This document shows positions 39,001-42,000 of a DNA stretch of 64,000 nt, piece by piece. Where the stretch lies: assembly GCF_055900595.2 (NCBI RefSeq), contig NZ_CM148325.1. The stretch is one strand, 5' to 3'. The first letter of the stretch is position 1; every line of letters starts with the position of its first letter. Position numbers: made by a program.

Positions 39001-42000
39001 TATCTGTCTGCTGGATGCAGGGGGAGTTTGATCTTATGTCACCAGATTATGAAAAGCATCCTGACTTGTTTTATCAGATGGTAACTTCTTTCAGGTCTGA
39101 GTTATCTGAATACTCATCTCAGTGTGTTGGTAATTCGTCAGAAAGAGTTCCATGGTTGTGTGGTGATACAACCTGGTACTGGAAGGAATCTTATCAAAAA
39201 GAATATGATTTTATATATGGACATTACAGACAACGGACTGATGATGAAATACATTTTCTCAGCTTTCAGGATAGTAACCGACATGAATTAACTAATGAGC
39301 CAGAAGAAGATGCCGATGATTTATCTGTCGGGTATCTGGGGTCATCATGGAGGACAGAATTAAGCTGGACAACGTCACAGAGAAGTACACATTTTAATTC
39401 AATGGCCAGAAGGGGAGTTATTGCTGAATGTTATGCGCAAAAAATAAGAAATTATTTGTAGACAAGTTCAGGATATATCTACAGCTCTGACATGATTCTC
39501 TGAGAGACATGACGGAGTGGTTAGACTGGCCCCCTGAATCTCCAGACAACCAATATCACTTAAATAAGTGATAGTCTTAATACTAGTTTTTAGACTAGTC
39601 ATTGGAGAACAGATGATTGATGTCTTAGGGCCGGAGAAACGCAGACGGCGTACTACACAGGAAAAGATCGCTATCGTTCAGCAGAGCTTTGAACCGGGAA
39701 TGACGGTCTCCCTTGTTGCCCGGCAACATGGTGTGGCAGCCAGCCAGTTATTTCTCTGGCGTAAGCAATACCAGGAGGGAAGTCTTACTGCTGTGGCTGC
39801 CGGAGAACAGGTCGTTCCTGCCTCTGAACTTGCTGCCGCCATGAAGCAGATTAAAGAACTCCAGCGTCTGCTCGGCAAAAAAACGATGGAAAATGAACTC
39901 CTTAAAGAAGCCGTTGAATATGGGCGAGCAAAAAAGTGGATAGCGCACGCGCCCTTATTGCCCGGGGATGGGGAGTAAGCTTCGTCAGCCGTTGTCTCCG
40001 GGTGTCGCGTGCGCAGTTGCACGTCATTCTCAGACGAGCCGATGACTGGAAGGACGGCCGCCGCAGCCGTCACACGGATGATACGGATGTGCTTCGCCGT
40101 ATACACCATGTTATCGGAGAGCTACCCACATATGGTTATCGTCGGGTATGGGCGCTGCTTCGCAGACAAACAGAACTTGATGGTATGCCTGCGATCAATG
40201 CCAAACGTGTTTACCGGACCATGCGCCAGAATGCGCTGTTGCTTGAGCGAAAACCCGCTGTACCGCCATCGAAACGGGCACATACCGGCAGAGTGGCTGT
40301 GAAAGAAAGTAATCAGCGATGGTGCTCTGACGGGTTTGAGTTCCGCTGTGATAACGGAGAAAAACTGCGGGTCACGTTCGCGCTGGACTGCTGTGACCGT
40401 GAGGCACTGCACTGGGCGGTCACAACGGGTGGCTTCGACAGTGAAACAGTACAGGACGTCATGCTGGGAGCAGTGGAACGCCGCTTTGGCAGCGAGCTTC
40501 CGGCGTCTCCAGTGGAGTGGCTGACGGATAATGGTTCATGCTACCGGGCGAATGAAACACGTCAGTTCGCCAGGATGTTGGGACTTGAACCGAAGAACAC
40601 GGCAGTGCGGAGTCCGGAGAGTAACGGAATAGCAGAGAGCTTCGTGAAAACGATAAAGCGTGACTACATAAGTATCATGCCCAAACCAGACGGGTTAACG
40701 GCAGCAAAGAACCTTGCAGAGGCGTTCGAGCATTATAACGAATGGCATCCGCATAGTGCGCTGGGTTATCGCTCGCCACGGGAATATCTGCGGCAGTGGG
40801 CCAGTGATGGGTTAAGTGATAACAGGTGTCTGGAAATATAGGGGCAAATCCATTGTCAGCACCAACAATGTGGGCTGACATGATAAAGCTGTCTAGGAAA
40901 TCGTTCGCCTCCTCAGCGGACAATCCAAATGGTGATTGTCTCTGTTAAACGTTTATTTTGAAGGTCGACTGAATAAGGTGATGACGCTGTAGAATTTTTC
41001 ACGTGCCACAGAATTTTGAACGCTTTCTCTTACAATATTTCAATGTTTCTATCAGTATTCGCCGGAAGAAGTCATCGACCAAATCATCCCAGTCGTCTCG
41101 CACCACTGACCATTCATGGTTGACATGTGGTGGAAATCCGCTTCTACAGTAACCATTTTTTATTCGCAAAACCGAACACGCCATACGGATAGCTGTTAAC
41201 TGGCATGCCGAGGCAGTCGTTATTTATATTTAGTTTTGTCAATAATCTTTATTTTTTGTAAAAGGCAAATATAAATTATTCTCATTATTGTTTGTATTTA
41301 TGTATTGTCTTGCCGGTTAACATGATCGGAGATTAGTAATATGCGAATAACCACTCTGGCTTCCGTAGTCATTCCCTGTCTCGGATTTTCAGCCAGCAGC
41401 ATAGCTGCTGCAGAGGATGTGATGATTGTCTCTGCATCCGGCTATGAGAAAAAGCTGACTAACGCAGCCGCCAGTGTTTCTGTGATTAGCCAGGAGGAAT
41501 TGCAGTCCAGCCAGTACCACGATCTGGCGGAGGCTCTGAGATCAGTAGAGGGTGTGGATGTTGAAAGTGGTACGGGTAAAACCGGTGGGCTGGAAATCAG
41601 CATCCGAGGAATGCCAGCCAGTTACACGCTGATACTGATTGATGGTGTTCGTCAGGGCGGAAGCAGTGACGTGACTCCCAACGGTTTTTCTGCCATGAAT
41701 ACCGGGTTCATGCCCCCTCTGGCCGCCATTGAGCGTATTGAGGTTATCAGGGGGCCGATGTCCACACTGTATGGCTCTGATGCGATGGGCGGTGTGGTGA
41801 ATATCATTACCAGAAAGAATGCAGACAAATGGCTCTCTTCCGTCAATGCAGGGCTGAATCTGCAGGAAAGCAACAAATGGGGTAACAGCAGCCAGTTTAA
41901 TTTCTGGAGCAGTGGTCCCCTTGTGGATGATTCTGTCAGCCTGCAGGTACGCGGTAGCACACAACAGCGTCAGGGCTCATCGGTCACATCACTGAGCGAT

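Follow-up and report, generated by a model that had tools for sequence, protein, structure and literature searches.

We analysed a stretch of 64,000 nucleotides (contig NZ_CM148325.1 of NCBI RefSeq assembly GCF_055900595.2; hereafter the window) in which a copy of the insertion sequence (IS) IS2 stands between a nan-like (sialic-acid) module and iha, the gene of a siderophore receptor/adhesin. Immediately to the right of IS2, on the side of iha, lies a short fragment of another insertion sequence of the IS3 family. Taken together, our results make it very likely that this arrangement combines an old IS3-family relic, which predates the arrival of IS2, with a pair of IS2 copies whose recombination flipped a block of about 25 kb.

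An IS3-family relic upstream of iha

The fragment beside IS2 is the solo right end of an IS3-family element (40860-40915, plus strand, 56 bp), with its outer tip directed towards iha (41341-43431, plus strand, supported by the open reading frame (ORF) and by annotation), which starts 425 bp downstream of that tip. According to the original prediction, made from the sequence of the window alone, about 50 bp at 40853-40905 match in inverted orientation the terminal region, at 46850-46900, of an IS150-like element 6 kb away. This was confirmed by repeat search and alignment: the arms at 40862-40915 and 46844-46897 are 89% complementary over 54 nt, well beyond a short chance similarity. In a blastn comparison of the relic with the whole window, the pair reached E = 8e-13, and the next-best hits were chance matches of 13 nt with E = 0.04 or worse; chance as the source of the match was therefore rejected (E about 1e-12). 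The outer tip of the relic, ...CCTCCTCA at 40915, pairs with the terminus ...CATCCCCA of the partner element, which we label ISX (46844-48450). The tips read ...CCTCA in the relic and ...CCCCA in the partner, with the terminal CA present. The coding content of the relic amounts to the last six or seven transposase codons and the stop codon (QQCGLT* compared with QQCGLA*), together with the right inverted repeat.

While the fragment is real, its extent had to be corrected. ISX-like copies on plasmids align to it only from base 8-11 to base 63, at 84-89% identity, and thus the IS-derived part is 40860-40915. The first seven bases of the predicted span, TTGTCAG (40853-40859), show no homology to the IS copies and represent the last bases of an ancestral non-IS left flank; the corresponding place reads ...TAGTA TTGTCAGCGCC in IS2-free genomes (loci L007 and L009) and TTGCC in O157 (locus L002). 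Neither a transposase body nor a second end adjoins the relic, as judged by blastn and tblastn in the window and in the IS2-free loci, and the search of plasmids for a closer parent IS gave a best match of 89%. Homology over the terminal stretch of about 50 bp, with no body or second end beside it, identifies the fragment as an IS3-family terminal relic. A miniature inverted-repeat transposable element was considered and rejected, since there is a single terminus and the inner edge enters unrelated DNA.

We then looked at the distribution of the relic in a collection of 5426 complete Escherichia coli genomes, which is the scope of all genome counts given here. The 488 bp from 40853 to the start of iha were found in 1366 of them, about a quarter. 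The presence of IS2 was assessed with a query made of 60 bp of the IS2 right end, the relic and the iha upstream region, whose matches were sampled evenly: 27 of the sampled rows cover the IS2 part (ST131, CFT073, ATCC 25922 and others), and 28 begin exactly at 40852 and lack IS2 (O157:H7, O104:H4, O145, O111, enterotoxigenic E. coli and three variants of 91% identity). Homology to the window begins at 40852/40853 in every genome sampled.

In the IS2-free genomes the left flank is a conserved, AT-rich, non-IS stretch that ends in ...CATCGTTTGTCCTTAGTA, directly followed by TTGTCAGCGCCAACAATG; the same junction can also be read as ...CCTTAGTA followed by TTGTCAGCGCC, and it contains the TTGTC site that now adjoins IS2. 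This flank is present in about 684 records, in none of which it is followed by IS2. O157:H7 and O104:H4 have the same flank, as do GCEC19 in its selC island and NMBU-W12E19 in its nan-aerobactin island, and it is also the same in FORC_041, a 91%-divergent variant of the selC island carrying iha-btuB; RM10410, another selC-island variant (iha-btuB-espI), has only its last 25 bp or so in common. In IS2-free islands the conserved module continues beyond the relic for at least 2.6 kb on the left, and no ISX-like sequence was found in this ancestral left flank. The only transposase-like fragment located there was considered as the remainder of the IS3-family element and discarded, as an identity of just 28% over 89 amino acids (aa) points to a different element. 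An untruncated element upstream of iha was found in none of the genomes, none of which covers even 80% of the chimeric query.

Since neither the length nor the inner edge of the relic differs in genomes that lack IS2, its truncation is older than IS2. Moreover, as even the 91% lineage has the old left flank, a truncated relic bordered by this non-IS flank is the ancestral state, and the junction with IS2 is derived. Judging from these junctions, IS2 did not cut an ISX-like element and sits 7 bp outside the relic, at the TTGTC of the old flank. The original prediction had instead suggested an insertion of IS2 into a copy of the other element, or recombination between the two; on this account a full IS3-family copy was hit and the rest of it was removed by an IS2-associated deletion. 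Such an origin would fit with IS2 abutting the fragment and having no target duplication, but we consider it very unlikely. When related islands free of IS2 are compared, the same truncated relic appears with the same inner edge and the conserved non-IS flank, including in the 91%-divergent lineage. In addition, seven bases of that flank still separate IS2 from the relic, and ISX-like sequence is found to the left of IS2 in no arrangement.

Across the relic and iha, the window is 99.3% identical to O157. Compared with FORC_041, the relic shows 7 differences in 56 bp, at an overall identity of 91%, and is thus no better conserved than its surroundings. The invariable linkage to iha in all 1366 genomes could be taken as a sign that the relic has been kept for a function, for instance in driving iha from an outward promoter, in regulating iha, or in attracting IS2 as a preferred target. 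We find this hardly credible: the relic lies 425 bp from the iha start, a promoter scan found no promoter-like site within it, it diverges at least as fast as the neighbouring DNA, and IS2 sits 62 bp from its tip and not at the tip. Simple co-inheritance suffices to account for the linkage, and we read the relic as a dead, functionless and passive scar.

Like the solo IS ends and IS remnants known from E. coli pathogenicity islands, the relic consists of a terminal inverted repeat and a few 3' transposase codons with no body, and it lies among similar debris (IS110, IS600, IS66 and IS3 orfA fragments). It does not differ from them in any essential way, and is notable for the breadth of its co-inheritance with iha. 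As a useful fixed marker, it indicates that the iha modules of enterohaemorrhagic, enteroaggregative/Shiga toxin-producing and extraintestinal pathogenic E. coli (ExPEC) islands share one ancestor, and it dates the arrival of IS2 as later and specific to the ExPEC lineage.

Inverted IS2 copies and the two orientations of the iha-sat-aerobactin block

The IS2 of the window (39522-40852, plus strand, 1331 bp) is intact, with a programmed-frameshift transposase. It begins with TAGACTGG and ends with GGGGCAAATCCA, its own inverted repeats were detected, and its identity to K-12 IS2A is 95.4% over the 1040 bp compared; length, termini and identity all identify it as IS2. Transposition of IS2 normally generates target duplications of 5 bp. 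In the window, however, the element is flanked by GTGGT on the left (39517-39521, the right edge of the nan-like module) and by TTGTC on the right, in agreement with the original prediction, which had noted the missing duplication. Simple insertion was thus rejected as the origin of this junction, in the window and in strain 9 (both GTGGT/TTGTC) as well as in ATCC 25922 (ATCAC/TTGTC). The 5 bp abutting the right end, TTGTC, would represent the IS2 target. No other IS2 copy that could act as a reciprocal partner was found in the window.

Such a partner is present in related genomes. Strain 9 carries a first IS2 copy that is identical to that of the window and has the same flanks, and a second, inverted copy exactly at the junction between shiF and a Gp2 remnant, where ...GCTGCCCCCGCC is followed by the IS2 copy reading TGGATTTG...CCAGTCTA and then by ACGGTTTACG. 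The two copies enclose a block of 25,322 bp. When the Gp2 remnant, IS2 and the relic were joined in one query, genomes with exactly that order were retrieved. One of them, clone D i14, reads DUF417-primase/Gp2 remnant, IS2, relic-iha ... sat-iutA-iuc-shiF, inverted IS2 and inverted nan-like module, i.e., the same block as in strain 9, in the opposite orientation and between the same two IS2 copies. To count the orientations, we included 600-bp flanks in the query, whereby one-sided matches fell below 80% coverage. The arrangement of the window, with the nan-like module, IS2 and relic-iha in this order, was found in 545 genomes, and the other orientation, in which the Gp2 remnant, IS2 and relic-iha follow each other (and the nan-like module, IS2 and shiF-iuc do so at the other end), in 39. 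Both features of an IS-bounded invertible segment, namely inverted IS copies and two orientations, are therefore found in related genomes, with the second copy lying outside the window. The part of the block inside the window (40853-64000) comprises the relic, iha, hypothetical genes, an lldP fragment, ISX, IS600/IS30, sat, iutA and iuc, and it continues to shiF past the window.

A comparison of gene orders gives the same picture. ATCC 25922 has the nan-like module, shiF-iucABCD-iutA-sat-hypothetical, IS66, an IS3 orfA fragment, IS2, relic-iha-hypotheticals and DUF417. The window has the nan-like module, IS2, relic-iha-hypotheticals-IS110 fragment-lldP fragment, ISX and, inverted, hypothetical-IS600/IS30-sat-iutA-iuc-shiF; beyond position 64000, judging from the near-identical FDAARGOS_448, shiF would be followed by a 390-bp Gp2/primase remnant and DUF417. 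The nan-like module and shiF-iuc are contiguous in ATCC 25922 and NMBU-W12E19, whereas in the window the same block is inverted and found on the far side of iha. The orientation with the nan-like module beside shiF-iuc is probably the older one, since this order is also seen with no IS2 present. Two further links, both in the arrangement of the window, are ancestral: that of the hypotheticals to lldP, because in GCEC19 the genes follow the same order and lead into an intact lldP-lutABC, and that of the Gp2 remnant to the primase remnant, because it belongs to the common island backbone.

A flip of the block swaps its flanks, which explains both the unmatched flanks of the window IS2 and the position of iha next to the nan-like locus. 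The earlier suggestion that the missing duplication marks a rearrangement placing iha beside the nan-like locus is thus supported, in the modified form of a flipped block.

The two IS2 copies themselves carry traces of recombination. The second copy of strain 9 (locus L015, 7668-8998) is identical to the window copy over positions 1-651 and differs from it at 25 sites over positions 688-1305, where it mostly matches the IS2 of ATCC 25922. This sharp switch in identity fits with crossing-over within IS2. On the other hand, the IS2 pair and the inversion could have arisen in one step, by intramolecular (replicative-type) transposition into the junction between the nan-like module and shiF. The identity of the copies over positions 1-651 would agree with such an event, as would the position of the breakpoints, of which one coincides exactly with an IS2 terminus and the other with the nan-shiF junction, and a GG(C/T) overlap that the two new junctions have in common. 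Nonetheless, a one-step origin is unlikely, because this overlap is 2-3 bp long and not the 5 bp normal for IS2, the right halves of the copies differ at the 25 sites mentioned above, and both orientations hold both copies, which recombination explains directly. Furthermore, IS3-family elements move by a copy-out/paste-in pathway through circular intermediates.

In FDAARGOS_448 the second IS2 is missing, and the junction (locus L011, about 23220, about 4.9 kb past the right end of the window) reads ...CCCGCC T GGTTTACG. The intact Gp2/YagK gene reads ...GTAGAC GGTTTACG at this place, and in strain 9 IS2 is followed by ACGGTTTACG. These sequences suggest that in FDAARGOS_448 IS2 was deleted across a GG microhomology, with one IS2 base remaining in place of the natural AC. 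The form with a single IS2 would consequently be derived.

A coarse inversion of sat/iutA between GI-pheV of the ST131 strain EC958 and the pheV island of CFT073 has already been noted (Totsika et al. 2011, PMC3203889) and, as far as the relevant passages of that paper describe it, corresponds to the rearrangement between the window and ATCC 25922. In those passages neither the IS2 breakpoints nor a second IS2 copy is described, and the alternative orientation and the relic are likewise absent; this coarse mention was the only one we found in the literature on the inversion. The IS2 pair now supplies base-level breakpoints for the ST131 sat/iutA inversion.

With two inverted IS2 copies, a 25-kb block found in both orientations, swapped flanks and a mosaic IS, the system resembles known inversions between inverted IS copies. 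It departs from a plain case in that matched 5-bp duplications are missing even after the flip is undone, and in that the second copy has since been deleted in many genomes. Both the relic and the IS2 pair represent ordinary IS biology, and their novelty is low. Their importance lies mainly in annotation and island phylogeny, and they imply no new mechanism or function. They also call for caution, as the region can be mis-assembled or can differ between close relatives.

In ATCC 25922 (locus L004, 4474-4730), the IS2 beside the relic is joined end to end to a different IS3-family element, represented by its left terminus and an orfA fragment and preceded by the IS66-family element ISEc43; this IS2 is also devoid of a duplication.

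Proposed history of the region

From the homology of the relic, its distribution, the two orientations and the junction sequences, we infer the following order of events, with recombination as the mechanism. An IS3-family element related to ISX would have been truncated long ago, leaving its last 56 bp, and the resulting relic would then have been carried as a fixed part of the iha upstream DNA in the O157 tellurite/adherence, selC and pheV islands. Later, in the ExPEC pheV-island lineage, IS2 would have come to lie at TTGTC, 7 bp outside the relic, and the original left-hand DNA would have been lost, presumably by recombination between IS2 copies. Given a second, inverted IS2 about 25 kb away, homologous recombination between the copies would flip the block. 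One orientation would read nan-like module, IS2, shiF-iucABCD-iutA-sat ... iha-relic, IS2, Gp2/primase remnant; the other, that of the window, would read nan-like module, IS2, relic-iha ... sat-iutA-iuc-shiF, (IS2), Gp2/primase remnant. Some descendants, for example FDAARGOS_448, may have deleted the second IS2 almost precisely, thereby fixing the orientation. In the simplest account, one IS2 would have inserted into the TTGTC of the old flank and another into the Gp2 gene, and recombination between the two would have eliminated the old flank and linked the iha module with the pheV island.

Several observations weigh against this history. First, matched 5-bp duplications are found in neither orientation: one pairs (GTGGT, TTGTC) with (ACCGT, GGCGG), and the other (GTGGT, GGCGG) with (ACCGT, TTGTC). 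Each IS2 copy must therefore have an earlier history of at least one event. Matched duplications, whether under recombination between two copies or under one-step transposition, do not fit the junction sequences in either model. Second, the predicted intermediate, in which the ancestral flank with TTGTC, IS2, and TTGTC with the relic would follow each other, was found in 0 of the 5426 genomes. Third, the direction of the inversion, i.e., which orientation is parental, is deduced solely from the canonical nan-shiF order. Fourth, the block extends past the end of the window, and its second IS2 is known from related genomes. Lastly, the model gives no explanation for the nan-like module ending at the same base in the subAB island.

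The nan-like module, which includes a sialate O-acetylesterase gene (38472-39461) and lies to the left of IS2 in the window, was found in 691 genomes. Among the sampled nan rows, about one in six loses homology at 39520/39521 and has no IS2 after it. The sequence continues instead with shiF-iucABCD (NMBU-W12E19 and ATCC 25922; loci L005 and L012) or with subAB (2015C-3121; locus L006). The module thus ends on the same base in three contexts, IS2 in the window, shiF-iuc and subAB, pointing to an older boundary of the module or to a hot spot for recombination.

A further possibility is that the 25-kb iha-sat-aerobactin block is recurrently reversible in ExPEC and that its orientation alters the expression of the genes beside the IS2 ends. 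We regard this as quite improbable. If it were true, the block would act as a slow, IS-based switch in a virulence island, with iha on one side and shiF/aerobactin on the other, and the relic would remain a passive scar.

The ISX element and other features of the window

ISX, the partner of the relic, is an IS3-family pseudo-element (46844-48450, minus strand, 1607 bp) with TG...CA ends and inverted repeats of about 26 bp. Its three ORF pieces all score as IS3-family transposase, and they belong to a single 510-codon frame with two in-frame stops (...LYK*KDE... and ...FKA*QPN...), in place of the usual two frames joined by frameshift. The Prokaryotic Genome Annotation Pipeline annotates it as a pseudogene, and E. 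coli genomes contain related sequence at over 10,000 sites.

The partner had been called IS150-like. This holds to the extent that it belongs to the IS3 family and that its OrfB region is 43% identical to IS150 InsK at the amino-acid level; yet it is not IS150, as we found no blastn match to the K-12 IS150, no match to InsJ and only a single frame, and the term is a loose one. ISX resembles the IS150 of E. coli K-12 in its IS3-family DDE transposase, its TG...CA ends and its long N-terminal helix-turn-helix region, and differs from it in length (1607 bp vs 1443 bp) and in having one continuous frame instead of two joined by a frameshift.

ISX interrupts the L-lactate permease gene and has no flanking duplication (AAT/ACG). 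An internal lldP fragment (46333-46843, plus strand), 91.8% identical to the intact lldP of GCEC19, ends at the right end of ISX. Because the duplication is lacking and lldP is present on one side only, ISX too marks a breakpoint.

The right-end termini of the relic and of ISX face each other across iha, and could be taken for the two ends, both directed inwards, of an old composite transposon by which iha was mobilised. This is highly improbable. In IS2-free islands the conserved module runs on past the relic for at least 2.6 kb on the left, so that the relic is internal to it and does not form a boundary. The relic also occurs in GCEC19 and O157, neither of which has an element in lldP: GCEC19 has an intact lldP-lutABC, and in O157 iha is followed by ter genes. 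Moreover, the two ends have diverged by 11%, and the full element has no flanking duplication. With the right-hand element missing in O157 and GCEC19, and no duplication, a composite transposon carrying iha was rejected.

A 209-bp spacer (48451-48658) lies between the left end of ISX and the inverted sat-side block. Within it, bases 48547-48616 are 84% similar to a stretch of GCEC19 (locus L013, 35154-35223) that lies in the ancestral left flank of iha, next to a DDE-transposase fragment. These bases are possibly another IS-end relic.

Three additional differences between the window and other genomes were noted. An 80-bp stretch at 43950-44029, bounded by the 6-bp direct repeat GTCACC, is present in the window and missing from the iha module of GCEC19, where its absence likely reflects a small slippage deletion. 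WP7-S18-ESBL-09 (locus L003, 5084-7269) has kept the nan-like module, IS2 and the relic and has lost the DNA from iha to the middle of the IS3-family element; its deletion point holds another IS3-family element with a frameshift pseudoknot. Finally, a 2.7-kb IS66-family element (50602-53300; tnpA 225 aa, tnpB 115 aa, tnpC 523 aa) is inserted inside the IS30 copy of the window and is flanked by a clean 8-bp duplication, ACAAGTGT, at 50594-50601 and 53301-53308. This element is missing at this site in FDAARGOS_448 and in all 5426 genomes, the junction between IS30 and IS66 being unique to the window, and its insertion is therefore recent and strain-specific.

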